Sequence record: OR062527 | From: Escherichia phage vB_EcoM_11B_SA_NWU | Reading direction: 5' to 3' (one strand) | DNA length: 64,000 nucleotides | Shown here: piece by piece, positions 3,845 through 39,935 of the stretch | Position numbering within the stretch: position 1 is the first letter of the stretch | Layout: each line of letters starts with the position of its first letter | Made by a program: the position numbers and the translations under genes | The notes under the pieces: generated by a model | The model's input: only the letters and a program-made list of their open reading frames with translations | Database searches by the model: none | Told to the model about the DNA's origin: nothing

Positions 3845-5263
3845 TTATGGATAGGTATAGATGATACCAGTTTCTAAAGCAGTTTTATGAATGATGTATC
3901 CATTACGTGATTCTTGAACATCAACTTCTGGATAGTCTTTCATCATCTTCTGAAGAGTGTAACGATGCAAGTAGTACTTACTATCTGGATCGTCAGTTTT
4001 CCAATCTTTACCTTCTTCAGTCATTTTTTGGATTTCATCCATAACCCACCAACCGCACCAGATGTAAGCTGAAGTACGGTGTGGAAGAGGATGAACATAA
4101 GGCAATTCACCTTCTGGTTCCGGAGCAACTTTATCAGTCACTTGAACTTGACCTGTTGTTTTAACTGTTTTGCTATCATAATCAGTTGCTGCAACGACAG
4201 CAGTAACTTCAATAGTTTGACTTCCAACAGATGAGGTATCGACAGTATATACGTTAGTTGACCCTTCTACAGGAGAAGAATCTTTCTTCCACGAGTAAGT
4301 AATTTGTGCTTCTTCTGGAGCATCCGTAACATTAGCCGTAAATGTAGCCGAAGCATCTTGCTGAACGTTAATAGAAGGAGGAGTCAATGTAACCTGTGGA
4401 TTCATTGTCTTCTTATTAACCGTTAATGATACTTCATTCGAAGTAACTTCCTTTTCATTGTAATTTTCAGCAGTTACTTGGGCTACGCATTTAATTCTTT
4501 TTACTCCACTTGTAGTTGGAGTATAGCTAAATGTAGAGTTAGTTTCTCCACCAACTTGTGAATCATCTACATACCACTGATACGTAGCAGATGCTCCATC
4601 AGGTTGAGAAGCTAAGGCAGCAGTAAATTGAACTGGGGTTCCAATTACTCCAGCTGAAGGACTATCGGGAGTTACTGCCAAAGTAGTTGTCTGTGTCTTT
4701 TTATTAACAGTCAGTGACACTTCATTAGAAGTAACTTCTTTTGCATCATAATCTGTCGCGGTTACTTGAGCTACACACTTAATTGTTTTAACTCCACTTG
4801 TGTCAGGAGTGTAATTGAATGTAGCGCTAGTCGCTTCGCTCACAGGAGAACTGTCAACGTACCATTGATACGTAGCAGATGCGCCTGATGGCTGCGAAGC
4901 CAAAGCAGCGGTAAATTTAACAGCTGTTCCAATCACTCCAGCCGCAGGACTAGCAGGAGTTACGGCTAAGGTAGTCGTCTGTGTCTTATTTTTAACTGTG
5001 ATAGTTGTTGTCGCTTCAGCCGTTTCCGGGCCTCCTTCAGAAAGTGTATTTGTTGCAACTACTTTAATAGTCTTTTGACCAGCAGGACCTTTTAATACAT
5101 AATCAAAAGTTGCTTCAGACCCATCTTGTGGAGCATTATCTACACTCCAAGCATAAGTAATAGTTCCACCTCCAGTTTCACCACTGGGTGCAGCAGTAAA
5201 CTGCTTGGTTTCATCAATAACTCCTGACGGTGTTTTAGGAGTTATATCAACTGTAAAAGCCAT
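3845..5263 (-). CDS. hoc: Highly immunogenic outer capsid protein Hoc, 472 aa, with one extra Ig-like domain relative to the 376-aa T4 Hoc
   Basis: N- and C-terminal regions match T4 Hoc from memory; contains two adjacent ~96-aa repeats beginning NKKTQTTTLAVTP. Confidence 0.9.
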   Translation of the reverse strand: MAFTVDITPKTPSGVIDETKQFTAAPSGETGGGTITYAWSVDNAPQDGSEATFDYVLKGPAGQKTIKVVATNTLSEGGPETAEATTTITVKNKTQTTTLAVTPASPAAGVIGTAVKFTAALASQPSGASATYQWYVDSSPVSEATSATFNYTPDTSGVKTIKCVAQVTATDYDAKEVTSNEVSLTVNKKTQTTTLAVTPDSPSAGVIGTPVQFTAALASQPDGASATYQWYVDDSQVGGETNSTFSYTPTTSGVKRIKCVAQVTAENYNEKEVTSNEVSLTVNKKTMNPQVTLTPPSINVQQDASATFTANVTDAPEEAQITYSWKKDSSPVEGSTNVYTVDTSSVGSQTIEVTAVVAATDYDSKTVKTTGQVQVTDKVAPEPEGELPYVHPLPHRTSAYIWCGWWVMDEIQKMTEEGKDWKTDDPDSKYYLHRYTLQKMMKDYPEVDVQESRNGYIIHKTALETGIIYTYP

Positions 5264-33439: not shown

Positions 33440-34618
33440 TTAAAAATATTTTTTAAAACTCATCATAACTTTATCATCAACATCATTATCAATCTGTGCT
33501 ACAAGGTAAGATGACAGTTCTACTTCTTGCGGCGCGGATTGAACATTATCAGAATTAAGGTATTCACGAATCCAAGGATATGGATGTTTAACCGGAGCAT
33601 CGGTAATTGGGCATGGAAGACCGCACTGTTTCATACGAGATACAGTTAAGTAATCAATAAAGCTCCACATGCTATTTGTATTTAATCCAGGAACATCGCC
33701 ATCTTTAAATAAATGAACTGCCCAGTCTTTTTCTTGGCGGTTAACTTCCATGAAAATATCAACTGCTTCTTGTTCACACTCTTGAGCAATTTTAACCCAT
33801 TCATCGCCATCAGTACCGGATTGAAGCTGACGAATAATATATTGGGTGCCTTTAAGGTGAAGCTGCTCATCACGTGCAATGAACTTCATAATCTTGGCAT
33901 TACCTTCCATGATTTCCATGTTCTTATGGAAGTTAAAGGTACATGCGAAAGATACATAAAAACGAATAGCTTCCAGGGCATTGATAACATGAAGGCAGAG
34001 ATAAAGCGACTTCATCAATGCATATTTACATTCTTCCACATGCATAAGACTATTTGAATATGCATCTAAATCATATTCATTTTCGGAAAAACATTTAAAA
34101 ATTTCTTTTGCATTTTCCCATTCGCGCGTCTTAACCAGAACATCATCATAATAACGACCAATAGATTCAGCACGTTTCATGATAGCTTTATCTAATACAA
34201 TCTCATCAAATACCTTTGACGGATCAGTATAAAGATTTCGCATAATATGAGTGTATGAACGACTGTGAATAGTTTCACTAAAAGTCCATGTAGCAACCCA
34301 TGTATCAAGACTTGGGTCTGAAATTAACGACATAAGTACAGCAGACGGTGCACGACCCTGAATGCTATCTAGAAGTGATTGATACTTCAGGTTATTAGTA
34401 AAAATATCTTGCTGATATTGAGGAAGCTTGTTAAATTGCGCAGCATCCATCATTAAGTTTACTTCTTCAGGACGCCAGAAAAATGACAACTGCTTTTCGG
34501 TTAAATCTTCAAAAACTTTATGGCGTTGAATATCATAACGCGCAATACCAAGACCTGAACCGAAGAACATAGGTTCTTTTAAAACATCAACTGGATTTGT
34601 ATTAAAAACTGTGCTCAT
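33440..34618 (-). CDS. nrdB: Ribonucleotide reductase small subunit, uninterrupted
   Basis: 392-aa contiguous ORF with di-iron ferritin-like sequence; no intron. Confidence 0.92.
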   Translation of the reverse strand: MSTVFNTNPVDVLKEPMFFGSGLGIARYDIQRHKVFEDLTEKQLSFFWRPEEVNLMMDAAQFNKLPQYQQDIFTNNLKYQSLLDSIQGRAPSAVLMSLISDPSLDTWVATWTFSETIHSRSYTHIMRNLYTDPSKVFDEIVLDKAIMKRAESIGRYYDDVLVKTREWENAKEIFKCFSENEYDLDAYSNSLMHVEECKYALMKSLYLCLHVINALEAIRFYVSFACTFNFHKNMEIMEGNAKIMKFIARDEQLHLKGTQYIIRQLQSGTDGDEWVKIAQECEQEAVDIFMEVNRQEKDWAVHLFKDGDVPGLNTNSMWSFIDYLTVSRMKQCGLPCPITDAPVKHPYPWIREYLNSDNVQSAPQEVELSSYLVAQIDNDVDDKVMMSFKKYF

Positions 34619-34669: not shown

Positions 34670-36934
34670 TCATAATTTACAGGATGAACAATCTTCAGCT
34701 TTTGGAGTTTCTATTTCATAATCATCAGTACCAGAACCATCACGGGTATTATGATAATAGAAATTTTTTCCGCCAAAATACCAAAAATACAAAAGGTCAT
34801 CAATCATTATTGACATTGGAACCTTTCCTTTTGGAAAAATCTGCGGGTCATAATATGTATTCGCTGAAGCTGATTGACATACCCATTTCAGCATAATAGC
34901 TACCTGCGTAAGATAAGGTTTATTACCTTTCTTAGCTAATTTCCATGTATAATCATAGAGGTCTATGTTATGCTCAATATTGGGCACGACTTGATTAAAG
35001 GAACCCTCTTTTGATTCTTTAACAGAGACTGGTCCACGTGGAGGCTCGATGCCGTTTGTACTGTTAGAAACTTGGGAAGATGACTCACATGGCATAAGTG
35101 CTGATAATGTGCTATTACGGATGCCAAAGAGCTTAAGGTCTTCCCGCAGCGCCGACCAGTCACAAACGTATTTTGGAGCTGCGATTTGGTCAATCTTTTT
35201 ATTGTACCAGTCGATAGGTAATTCGCCTCGAGACCAACGAGTGTCTGAATAATATTCGCAAGGTCCTTTTTCTTTGGCGAGCTTAATGGATGCTTTAATG
35301 AGTCCATACTGTAATCTCTCAAATAGTTCATGTGTTAAATCGTTAGCATCTTCATAAGAAGCAAAGTTACTTGCCAGCCAAGCTGCATAGTTAGTAACAC
35401 CTACACCAAGGTTTCGACGCTTTTTAGCTTTTTCTGCTTCAGGAACTGGATATCCTTGGTAATCCAAAAGATTATCAAGAGCACGAACTTGAACTTCTGC
35501 TAATTCATTAATTTTATCTTGGTCTTGCCAATCGAAGTTATCCAGCACAAATGCAGATAACGTGCACAATCCAATTTCAGCATCAGGGCTATTCACATCA
35601 TTTGTTGGAATAGCAATTTCACAGCACAAGTTACTCTGACGAATAGGTGCCTTTTCACGAATAAACGGAGTATAGTTATTCGTATTATCAATGAACTGTA
35701 CATAAATCCTTGCTGTTCCTGAGCGTTCAGTCATGAGCAATTCAAATAGTTCACGAGCTTTAATACGTTTTTTACGAATATTAGGGTCTTTTTCTGCGGC
35801 TTCATACAATTCACGGAAACGGTCTTGGTCTTTAAAATAAGAATAATAAAGCTCGCCACCCATTTCATGCGGACTGAACAAAGTAATGTAGTCGTTCTTT
35901 CCAAAACGTTCCATCATTAGGTCATTCAGCTGGACGCCATAATCCATATGACGGATACGGTTTTCTTCTACGCCTTTGTTATTTTTCAAAACGAGAAGAT
36001 TTTCAACTTCCAAATGCCAAATAGGATAATAAGCAGTAGCAGCGCCGCCACGAATTCCACCCTGTGAACATGATTTAACTGCAGTCTGAAAATGTTTCCA
36101 AAAAGGAATAACACCGGTATGGCGTACTTCACCCATGCCAATCTTAGAACCTTCGGCACGAATCATACCAACGTTAATACCAATTCCAGCACGTTTAGAG
36201 ATATATTCAACAATTGAAGCGGAAGCCTTATTGATAGACTTCAGCGAATCACCTGCCTCAATAACAACACATGAACTAAACTGTCGAGTCGGAGTACGAC
36301 AACCAGCCATAATAGGAGTTGGCAGTGAAATCTGTCGAGTAGATACTGCTTCATAAAAACGGATAACGTGTTTTAGTCTATCAACAGGTTCATCTTGATG
36401 CAATGCCATTCCAATAGTCATAAATGCAAACTGAGGAGTTTCATAAATTTGACCAGTGGTTTTATCTTTAACTAGATATTTTTCTTTTAATTGCATCGCC
36501 CCGGAATAAGTAAATTCCATATCCCGCTCGTGCTTAATTTTTGATTCTAAAAATGTAATTTCTTCTGCTGAATATTTTGACAATAATTCAGGGTCATATT
36601 TACCTGCATTTACACAATAAGAAATATGGTCAATAAATGAACGCGGTTCATATTGTCCGTAAACATGCTTACGAAGAGCAAACATTAAACAACGTGCAGC
36701 TACATATTGGTAATCAGGCTCTTCAACCGAAATAGAATTCGCAGCGGCCTTAATGACAATAGTCTGAATATCATCAGTTGTCATTCCATCACGGAGATAA
36801 GATTTAATATTTTCATATAATTCATAAGGATCTACTGATGTTCCCTCAGCTGCCCAAGATAAAACTTTAATAATTTTTTGTGGGTCAAAGCTCTGAGAAA
36901 CACCACTACTTTTGATAACATTAATTAATTGCAT
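34670..36934 (-). CDS. nrdA: Ribonucleotide reductase large subunit
   Basis: 754 aa; ATP-cone N-terminus and class I RNR core. Confidence 0.95.
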   Translation of the reverse strand: MQLINVIKSSGVSQSFDPQKIIKVLSWAAEGTSVDPYELYENIKSYLRDGMTTDDIQTIVIKAAANSISVEEPDYQYVAARCLMFALRKHVYGQYEPRSFIDHISYCVNAGKYDPELLSKYSAEEITFLESKIKHERDMEFTYSGAMQLKEKYLVKDKTTGQIYETPQFAFMTIGMALHQDEPVDRLKHVIRFYEAVSTRQISLPTPIMAGCRTPTRQFSSCVVIEAGDSLKSINKASASIVEYISKRAGIGINVGMIRAEGSKIGMGEVRHTGVIPFWKHFQTAVKSCSQGGIRGGAATAYYPIWHLEVENLLVLKNNKGVEENRIRHMDYGVQLNDLMMERFGKNDYITLFSPHEMGGELYYSYFKDQDRFRELYEAAEKDPNIRKKRIKARELFELLMTERSGTARIYVQFIDNTNNYTPFIREKAPIRQSNLCCEIAIPTNDVNSPDAEIGLCTLSAFVLDNFDWQDQDKINELAEVQVRALDNLLDYQGYPVPEAEKAKKRRNLGVGVTNYAAWLASNFASYEDANDLTHELFERLQYGLIKASIKLAKEKGPCEYYSDTRWSRGELPIDWYNKKIDQIAAPKYVCDWSALREDLKLFGIRNSTLSALMPCESSSQVSNSTNGIEPPRGPVSVKESKEGSFNQVVPNIEHNIDLYDYTWKLAKKGNKPYLTQVAIMLKWVCQSASANTYYDPQIFPKGKVPMSIMIDDLLYFWYFGGKNFYYHNTRDGSGTDDYEIETPKAEDCSSCKL

Positions 36935-37251
36935 AAGTCCTCAACTTGAAAATCGTCTTTAAACAATCGGTTAACTATATGAGCTATTATATCACCATGA
37001 CACGGCTTTGGTTTACATGTGCATCCTAGCCTCATTCCACGTAAAGGCTCTAAATGTGCTTTAGTTATTTCTCCGGATTTAATTCGACGTATAAAATCTT
37101 TTTTGAATAATTCAATGGCAGCCTCCCGGCTGCCAGCATCTTTACCGACGTAATTTCCCCAAAATGTACCACGGTGAATATTAACATCAAAGTCGGATTT
37201 GTATTTATTCACTACCCGGCATAGACGGCCCGGTTGGTAATAATTCTTCAT
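36925..37251 (-). CDS. Hypothetical protein (nrdA.1 position)
   Basis: 108-aa ORF. Confidence 0.55.
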
Positions 37252-37488: not shown

Positions 37489-38349
37489 TTACACCGCCAT
37501 CTTTCCTTTAATAGGAGGATGTGATTCATAGTTGTTAAGAACAAAATTATGAGGCTTTGCAAATTGACTCAACCAAAATACCTGCGATTCTGTGTCCCAT
37601 TCATCAAATTCATCTGGAAATTTTAATTGTAATTCGCATAAATCCATAGGTTCACGACATAAAATTTCTTTACATTGTTCTACGTGATTCATATAGATAT
37701 GAGTATTACCACCAGAAAATATCAAATCTCCCGGAATAAGATTACACATCTTAGCTACAATATGAACTAACGTAGCATATGATGCAATATTAAATGGAAG
37801 ACCGAGGAAAACATCTACCGAACGTTGATACCACTGCAAATCCAAATAGCCATTACGCACATTAAACTGATAGAACATATGACAAGGCGGTAATGCCATA
37901 TATTTAAGTTCAGCTGGATTCCATGCAGAAACAATTTGACGCCTATCATTTGGCAGTTTTTTAATACGATCAATAACTTCTATAATTTGATCTACACCGC
38001 CAAAATCACGCCACTGTTTTCCATAAATTGGACCAAGTTCACCGCTATGGTATCCTAAATCTTTTGCTTGATTTTCGTAATTTTCATCCCAGACGGTTTT
38101 GCCTTGAATTAATGAATCATGTTGAATTAATCGCAAATCATTGACATTTGTGCTTCCTGATAAAAACCATATCAGCTCAGCAATGCATGCATTCCAGGCG
38201 AGCTTTTTAGTTGTTACTGCAGGAAAGCCTTTAGTTAAATCCCAACGCAATTTAGTACCGAACAGAGCAATTGTTCCTGTGCCCGTTCGGTCATCGGTTT
38301 CATAGCCATTTTCAAAAATGTCTTTAATTAAATCTTGGTATTGTTTCAT
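37489..38349 (-). CDS. td: Thymidylate synthase, uninterrupted
   Basis: 286-aa contiguous ORF equal to spliced T4 TS length; no intron. Confidence 0.93.
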   Translation of the reverse strand: MKQYQDLIKDIFENGYETDDRTGTGTIALFGTKLRWDLTKGFPAVTTKKLAWNACIAELIWFLSGSTNVNDLRLIQHDSLIQGKTVWDENYENQAKDLGYHSGELGPIYGKQWRDFGGVDQIIEVIDRIKKLPNDRRQIVSAWNPAELKYMALPPCHMFYQFNVRNGYLDLQWYQRSVDVFLGLPFNIASYATLVHIVAKMCNLIPGDLIFSGGNTHIYMNHVEQCKEILCREPMDLCELQLKFPDEFDEWDTESQVFWLSQFAKPHNFVLNNYESHPPIKGKMAV

Positions 38350-38394
38350 TTAGTACCTTATATAAATTATAATACATTTTATGAAGCTAAATAA

Positions 38395-38742
38395 TCAATA
38401 CGGTTTAGCATCAAATTTTCTCTCAATTTCAGGCGTGAAATATAATTCTTTACCGCGTTTGGAAAAGCGACCAATAATATGATAATTATTCTCATCAAAC
38501 GTGATATTACCAATATCCATAGCTTTCAACCAAATATCGATATTTCTATCCAGCTTTATGTCAAAATTCCAATATGGAGAACTATTACCGAAAATACTGC
38601 AAGCGGATTCAGTGAAACAACTGCTATAAATCTTGTCTTTAGGAACTACTAATTGATAGACACCTTTAATAAACTGAGGACCCTGCCACTTTGGCTGTTT
38701 CTCGTCTTTTTCTAATAGAATAGGGTAATAATTAAAATTCAT
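38395..38742 (-). CDS. Hypothetical protein inserted between frd and td
   Basis: 115-aa ORF with no recognisable motif, tightly packed between frd stop and td start. Confidence 0.55.
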   Translation of the reverse strand: MNFNYYPILLEKDEKQPKWQGPQFIKGVYQLVVPKDKIYSSCFTESACSIFGNSSPYWNFDIKLDRNIDIWLKAMDIGNITFDENNYHIIGRFSKRGKELYFTPEIERKFDAKPY

Positions 38743-38761
38743 ATTTCCGCCACGCGTTATT

Positions 38762-39591
<830 letters not shown>

Positions 39592-39602
39592 TTTATCTCC
39601 TA

Positions 39603-39935
39603 TTAAAAAGGATCAGGAACATATCCACTAGCTTTAATCATTTTAATTAACGTTAACATTCCTTTATTAACTGCTCGTGAGATTTCATCAAAAACTTCAT
39701 CACTAAAAAGTTCTAACACGCCCTTCTGAACTTTTAATTTACAGCCAACAATTTCTTCATCGCCTATAGTAAATTCATTACCACCAATTCCACCGAAAAA
39801 CTTAATTACACCAGTTAACTGTCTTCCACGAGAATATGGGTCGTGTGATAAAGTAATATGAGTCACCCCGGGTACAGTTTTAAATTGGCAGCGAATATTT
39901 ACTTGTGAAATTCCAGTTACATGAATATCAGACAT
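39603..39935 (-). CDS. Hypothetical protein (frd.2 position)
   Basis: 110-aa ORF. Confidence 0.5.
   Translation of the reverse strand: MSDIHVTGISQVNIRCQFKTVPGVTHITLSHDPYSRGRQLTGVIKFFGGIGGNEFTIGDEEIVGCKLKVQKGVLELFSDEVFDEISRAVNKGMLTLIKMIKASGYVPDPF

Follow-up and report, generated by a model that had tools for sequence, protein, structure and literature searches.

A Small Conserved Gene Between frd and td in T4-like Phages and Its Probable Deletion from T4

The open reading frame at the frd/td junction

The DNA considered here, hereafter the window, is a stretch of 64,000 nucleotides (nt) from Escherichia phage vB_EcoM_11B_SA_NWU (record OR062527). The element in question is an open reading frame (ORF) of 115 amino acids (aa), which we call orf1, located between frd, which codes for dihydrofolate reductase (DHFR) and ends at 38762, and td, which codes for thymidylate synthase and starts at 38349. 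A sequence-only reading of the window had singled out this ORF, and both the ORF list and the sequence agree with its placement (Table 1). The same reading contrasted the window with T4, where the two genes overlap, reportedly as seen in the sequence of Purohit and Mathews from 1984; indeed, in the T4 genome (NC_000866), frd and td share a 4-nt ATGA overlap, with no gene between them. It was also right that td in the window has neither the intron nor the I-TevI gene carried by T4 td, as it is a single ORF. Hundreds of GenBank phage records already list the ORF as a hypothetical protein, and its family is PHROG 1928, for which there is no assigned function and no solved structure.

Is it a gene at all? 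The ORF matches the PHROG 1928 hidden Markov model with an E value of 3.1e-36 (124.9 bits; residues 4-111 on profile positions 2-125 of 126), and tblastn with its protein returned matches in 563 phage records. Selection was assessed by pairwise Nei-Gojobori estimates of non-synonymous (dN) and synonymous (dS) divergence; across comparisons spanning dS 0.12-0.99, the dN/dS of the ORF is 0.007-0.06. Compared with T2, for example, there are 14 synonymous differences and a single non-synonymous one, and compared with Mosigvirus AlbertHofmann, 29 and 10, respectively (dS 0.71, dN 0.036, dN/dS 0.05). The PHROG match, the number of tblastn records and the synonymous excess mean, taken together, that the ORF is not a chance reading frame; it is a genuine gene under strong purifying selection. 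For the identical genome pairs, dN/dS is 0.035-0.21 for frd and 0.07-0.23 for td, so that, within the compared group, the ORF protein is at least as constrained as the two flanking enzymes. The sequence-only reading had staked its case on the ORF being absent from T4 and on its coding sequence being conserved among relatives: the ORF is absent from T4, and the signal of coding selection is strong.

Distribution of the gene and ancestry of the junction

Of the 551 records that match the flanks, 357 have the complete frd-orf1-td arrangement. By tblastn, 362 records encode a protein with at least 90% identity, and one with 92-100% identity stands at the frd/td junction of some 360 records from Tequatrovirus and Mosigvirus; carriers include T2 (EcT2_00240), T6 (annotated "RB32ORF229c"), RB3 (RB3_232), RB18, RB32, wV7, and AR1. 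Over 701 base pairs (bp) around the ORF, the window is 100% identical to the Tequatrovirus Escherichia phage vB_EcoM-UFV09 and the sister isolates of that phage. The Mosigvirus homologs share 92-93% identity with the window protein, those of two metagenomic T4-like contigs 63-66%, those of Kanagawavirus 44-47%, and those of Klebsiella phages, Moonvirus, and Gelderlandvirus 30-36%, with homologs at 30-66% identity directly 3′ of frd in at least four further Tevenvirinae genera; even family members without tblastn-detectable similarity to the window protein follow a DHFR gene. In all 29 homolog-bearing loci inspected, the homolog comes right after frd and before td, and across loci its identity to the window follows that of Td (Spearman 0.88) and that of Frd (0.68).

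The family is small, with 42 clusters at 50% identity among 1.84 billion representatives, and all its members are single-domain proteins of 95-139 aa, with no longer, intact relative among them. When bacterial and archaeal genomes were scanned with the window protein, no close relative came up, only a spurious 36-residue match in one metagenome-assembled genome, and a search of the six-frame ORFs of the window with the family profile gave no second copy. Three sequences were set aside: P0037 and P0049, long repeat proteins from the representative search, are low-complexity false positives, and P0015 is an uninformative 195-aa chimera on an oddly arranged contig. In the latter, the final 35 residues of orf1 from a Klebsiella phage follow an N-terminal part that weakly resembles RlaP (nucleotidyltransferase); in its record, OR941409.1, td and nrdA are split and the gene order is unusual, and the genome may be rearranged or misassembled.

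In several lineages, orf1 is not alone. A second gene, orf2, coding for 113-139 aa, follows it in Kanagawavirus, Moonvirus, Gelderlandvirus, and metagenomic relatives and is absent from the window and from the Tequatrovirus loci examined. It is a paralog of orf1: orf2 of phage PEi20 matches PHROG 1928 with an E value of 1.5e-37, and pairwise and multiple alignments concur. The two share a C-terminal GRFxKxG..F hairpin, the QxKW and hGIY motifs, and their operon, and differ by an insertion of about 18 residues (..PTIxEY..NP..) following the QKKW motif in orf2. The third gene of the full cassette in some genomes, orf3, codes for 68 aa (phrog_9550, MSNKLKVKDVP...); all three genes are present in Entb_45 and on contig L013. 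In other genera, most junctions of the cassette are ATGA stop/start overlaps, which is consistent with translational coupling to the neighbors. Within Tequatrovirus, we found subsets of the cassette: orf1 only (the window, T2, T6, and RB3), orf3 only (PYps5T, EPIMRB01, and about 135 records), or neither (T4, RB59, F1, and phage 112). Such an empty junction is the rarest state, found in only 4 of 60 records sampled evenly down the ranking. As an alternative occupant of the frd/td junction, orf3 is seen in about 135 Tequatrovirus and Dhakavirus records; phrog_9550 also has homologs, at 40-43% identity, outside the T4-like phages, in Phapecoctavirus. Searches with orf2 and orf3 gave no PADLOC match and nothing meaningful in Pfam or NCBIfam, the sole NCBIfam hit of orf2 scoring 17.6 bits against a cut-off of 207.

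In the window, two perfect copies of a 9-bp direct repeat, TAAATGAAA, lie 416 bp apart and bound the segment holding orf1, and the T4 junction reads ...GTATATAAATGAAACAATACC..., which is the precise product of a deletion between the two copies; the exactness of this match argues that the T4 overlap is the derived state. Deletion between short direct repeats is a known deletion mode in T4. A nearby run of A's points in the same direction. The window, T2, T6, and T4 read GTATATAAATGA (A3 run), and their frd codes for 193-194 aa, whereas RB3, JoYop, JQD51, and AlbertHofmann read GTATATAAAAA(T/C)GA (A5 run), with 204-205 aa; the two extra A's in RB3, JoYop, and the Mosigviruses (GTATATAAAAATGAAATA...) make frd 11 codons longer at its C-terminal end, through the stretch that is the frd-to-orf1 spacer in the window, and it then overlaps the start of orf1 by 11 nt. 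As the shorter run, with its TGA stop and its microhomology, is common to the window, T2, T6, and T4, it suggests that T4 descends from an arrangement like that of the other three. We hold it to be very probable that orf1 is vertically inherited and ancestral in the frd-td block and that T4 is a deletion derivative. The ancestral Tevenvirinae order would have been frd, orf1, orf2, the 68-aa orf3, and td, from which lineages would have kept either orf1 alone (as the window, T2, T6, and RB3 do), orf3 alone (the PYps5T type), or nothing (T4), T4 having presumably lost its 416-bp segment between the TAAATGAAA copies, a loss that would have yielded its ATGA overlap.

The sequence-only reading had instead described an extra ORF inserted as accessory cargo, and one could picture a recent insertion of a mobile cassette into a junction that was originally overlapping, as in T4. 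The bounding repeat could in principle be a target duplication, but TAAATGAAA is the stop/start context common to ATGA-linked genes, and the 416-bp segment contains no transposase, endonuclease, or integrase. The T4 reference does lack the gene and different phages do have alternative occupants at the junction; however, the presence of orf1 is the majority state, the empty junction is the rarest one, and the divergent homologs that share this slot across at least four further genera call for either a single ancient presence or many separate insertions into one site. The slot is a single fixed one across genera, and ORF identity follows Td identity. A synteny comparison across Tevenvirinae, which that reading itself had proposed as a check, contradicts insertion, since the homolog comes after frd in every homolog-bearing locus inspected; these data largely refute a recent insertion, which we regard as very improbable.

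The claim that this junction has a mobile-element history of its own, tied to the missing td intron, did not hold either. The ORF occurs together with the td intron and I-TevI in T6 and RB3 and without the intron in T2 and the window; the histories of the ORF and of the intron are thus independent. Recombination has probably touched the locus. The window Frd is 95-97% identical to that of JoYop, Mosigvirus, and L022 and 88-89% to that of T4, T2, and T6, whereas the first 183 residues of the window Td are 99% identical to T4 Td exon 1 and only 80-82% to the Td of JoYop and Mosigvirus; at synonymous sites, the ORF is nearest T6, RB3, and T2. These differing affinities suggest recombination breakpoints near both ends of the ORF and a mosaic ancestry.

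Table 1. Features discussed in the text; coordinates are those of the window unless another record or locus is named.
Feature	Coordinates	Strand	Basis
orf1, 115 aa, ATG start, N-terminus MNFNYYPILLEKDEKQPKWQGPQF...	38395..38742	-	ORF list; PHROG 1928 "orf1" type
frd, dihydrofolate reductase, 194 aa, upstream neighbor of orf1	38762..39346	-	ORF list
td, thymidylate synthase, one unbroken 286-aa ORF, downstream neighbor of orf1	37489..38349	-	ORF list
frd-to-orf1 spacer, 19 nt, AATAACGCGTGGCGGAAAT, purine-rich stretch ahead of ATG	38743..38761	-	sequence
orf1-to-td spacer, 45 nt, with td's own AAGG ribosome-binding stretch	38350..38394	-	sequence
Sigma-70-like TTGATT-18-TATTAT match, beginning in the last bases of orf1	38398..38369	-	promoter-like pattern search
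Left copy of 9-bp direct repeat TAAATGAAA, containing the frd stop TGA (38762..38764) within ATGA	38760..38768	-	exact match; T4 junction alignment
Right copy of 9-bp direct repeat TAAATGAAA, containing the td start codon (38347..38349)	38344..38352	-	exact match; T4 junction alignment
81-aa ORF between frd.1 and frd	39346..39591	-	
110-aa ORF between frd.1 and frd	39603..39935	-	
nrdB, unbroken 392-aa ORF	33440..34618	-	
nrdA	34670..36934		
nrdA.1 (DUF4326)	36925..37251	-	
T4 frd (NC_000866)	145109..145690		
T4 td (NC_000866)	ends 145112		
orf3 (phrog_9550), L008	2636..2842		
orf3 (phrog_9550), L009	1636..1842		
orf3 (phrog_9550), L003	3173..3379		
orf3 (phrog_9550), L013	4670..4879		
P0015, L035 (OR941409.1)	4001..4588		

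The protein and its candidate roles

AlphaFold2 predicts a compact, beta-rich fold with a predicted local distance difference test (pLDDT) score of 82 and a predicted template modeling (pTM) score of 0.77 when 15 homologs are used, rising to 90 and 0.83 with 48 homologs, with unchanged topology and all five models at pLDDT 88-90. The predicted elements are strands at residues 6-12, 27-34, and 62-64, a helix at 68-76, and strands at 80-82, 86-96, and 99-104, with a small hairpin in the 38-50 loop; the order b1-b2-b3-helix-b4-b5 is that of the OB-fold. The model has no significant match among solved structures, and neither phmmer nor the 48-sequence profile found anything below E 0.09 among PDB sequences. 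Noise-level structural neighbors in two methods are mostly OB-fold nucleic-acid binders, which we take as a lead only, and the neighbors in BFVD are exclusively uncharacterized proteins of T4-like phages of Pectobacterium, Serratia, Erwinia, and Aeromonas. Among the 48 family members compared, W19, G91, K95, and G97 are the sole invariant residues, and Q16, G27, Y29, F93, and F102 come close to invariance. No position conserves an acidic residue, His, Cys, or Ser, a pattern that speaks against an enzyme and against a nuclease in particular. These hydrophilic, mildly basic proteins have no membrane-like hydrophobic character, and their median isoelectric point of 8.7 implies that they are not acidic DNA mimics. 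Having found no Pfam family for the ORF even at E <= 10 and no NCBIfam hit, we share the initial impression that it shows no nuclease, helix-turn-helix, or membrane motif.

That impression sat beside the suggestion that the ORF might be a degenerate homing endonuclease, here a free-standing one. Several records of the BASEL collection (MZ501046, MZ501047, MZ501089, and others) do annotate a "putative homing endonuclease", the T4 neighborhood is rich in such genes (I-TevI, MobE, and SegG), and the stretch "KGVYQL" superficially resembles "SGIYQI", the GIY motif of I-TevI. The resemblance does not extend further: no GIY-YIG, HNH, or LAGLIDADG family is hit in Pfam even at E <= 10, and the family profile scores only about 0-3 bits against I-TevI, MobE, and I-TevIII (1.3 bits against MobE). 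Membership of the GIY-YIG class was examined through PF01541, the GIY..YIG motifs, and the Arg/Glu/Asn residues, none of which is found, and membership of the HNH class through Pfam and an invariant His/Asn/Cys, with the same result; the invariant residues are limited to W, K, and two G, with no conserved Arg/Glu/Asn or His/Cys set. With no longer, intact relative and an inheritance that looks vertical, neither domain, motif, nor profile speaks for this origin, and we find it barely credible.

One has to take more seriously a host-directed effector, acting in anti-defense or host take-over by neutralizing a host protein found in some strains only, since a target of this kind would account for the dispensability of the gene and its occasional loss. 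The protein is small, confined to T4-like phages in the searches made, and has a fold without known relative; it shows presence/absence polymorphism among closely related Tequatroviruses, and its surroundings are an early-gene region with many small accessory ORFs. Near-invariance in phages of E. coli and Shigella, against an identity of only 30-47% in those of Klebsiella, Edwardsiella, Citrobacter, and Salmonella, would fit a host-specific target; however, Frd diverges equally fast between genera, so the divergence of the ORF is unexceptional. Its position is fixed in all the lineages examined, its identity tracks that of Td, and there is no sign of diversifying selection, dN/dS being below that of the flanking enzymes. 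Contrary to what the sequence-only reading expected of accessory cargo, such a very low dN/dS combined with fixed synteny is not the usual pattern of an arms race. The ORF had no hit in PADLOC, a library of defense-system proteins, no dedicated anti-defense library being among those scanned, and no paper in the literature searched names the ORF. An effector role appears unlikely to us on balance.

The reading that we favor, although with low confidence in the function itself, is that the product is a non-enzymatic binding protein acting beside the proteins of nucleotide-precursor synthesis and replication; a binding role is proposed because there is no conserved catalytic set. The product would be a small, soluble, mildly basic binding or adaptor protein, made with Frd and Td from shared early/middle transcripts, and it would bind either a partner protein of the machinery for deoxynucleoside triphosphate (dNTP) synthesis and replication or single-stranded nucleic acid. 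It would raise fitness and yet is dispensable, like frd and td themselves, as its loss in T4 and others shows. Several points weigh against this proposal. About 40% of related records have no orf1, which makes any role with Frd or Td non-obligatory, and, to our knowledge, the T4 dNTP-synthetase complex works without the ORF protein. Gene order is generally conserved in T4-like phages, which makes adjacency to frd weak evidence of a functional link. From genus to genus, the ORF protein changes at about the pace of Frd and far more quickly than Td, which would also fit a host-specific target. Finally, the searchable literature holds no expression or interaction data on the ORF; nothing on function was found there under RB32ORF229c, phrog_1928, the protein accessions, or the BASEL locus tags, and the general literature on frd and td in T-even phages says nothing about the ORF in what was searched. 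For the explanation as a whole, ancestral origin and binding-protein mechanism together, we see about an even chance.

A wider and more speculative proposal, which we think rather improbable, takes in both orf1 and orf2: PHROG 1928 might be an unrecognized frd-coupled component of the nucleotide-precursor/replication machinery, either a new OB-like fold binding single-stranded nucleic acid or a bridge between Frd and Td, or else a host-specific effector whose target differs between enterobacterial genera. If the former were true, this component would have been overlooked for 40 years because the reference phage T4 deleted orf1/orf2. Whatever the function, what is added here to the existing annotation is the reading of T4 as a deletion derivative, the recognition of a cassette with tandem paralogs, and a confident model of a structure that has no solved relative. 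This would correct a bias due to the reference genome, the T4 frd/td overlap being probably derived, while T2, T6, and most relatives have a gene there; genetics based on T4 cannot see the genes that T4 lost. The string of ATGA-linked genes also suggests how short stop/start microhomologies could let T4-like phages drop genes and keep translational coupling. With a tighter constraint on its sequence than on the neighboring enzymes and a confident fold lacking a solved relative, the protein is a reasonable and cheap target for study.

Surrounding features and counterparts in known systems

The spacer between orf1 and td, 45 nt in the window, is only 13 nt in JoYop and Mosigvirus. About 32 nt of the window spacer are missing from these phages, and this stretch also contains TATAAT; together with the sigma-70-like match, the TTGATT-18-TATTAT/TATAAT stretch could be a candidate td promoter. 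In the region as a whole, promoter-like matches are as frequent as expected from shuffled sequence (16 found vs. 13.4 +/- 3.4).

Two more small ORFs present in the window between frd.1 and frd, of 81 and 110 aa, are missing from T4; their T6 equivalents are annotated RB32ORF231c and RB51ORF237, and the 81-aa ORF has a dN/dS of 0.02-0.06. T4 seems to have lost several small genes around frd. On the other side of td, nrdB is unbroken and follows nrdA after 51 nt, both on the - strand, so the window has neither mobE nor the nrdB intron with I-TevIII, and its entire nrd-td block is free of the homing elements of T4. In nrdA.1, non-synonymous changes exceed synonymous ones compared with T2 and JoYop (dN/dS 0.5-1.3), with tiny counts (e.g., 7.5 vs. 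1.5 differences); its first 47 nt overlap nrdA.2 in another frame.

Three comparisons with known systems place orf1. The proteins of T2, T6, and RB3 are 99% identical to that of the window and occupy the identical genomic slot; they are the same gene, with no material difference. The T4 frd/td pair resembles that of the window up to the junction itself, frd being identical over its final 30 nt and td over its first 30, and differs in that the two genes of the window are separated by the segment holding the ORF. As for OB-fold domains, such as those of SSB, RPA, HIN, and S1, the ORF protein recalls them in the order of its predicted elements, its mildly basic character, and its conserved aromatic and Lys residues, a resemblance only and not a membership.
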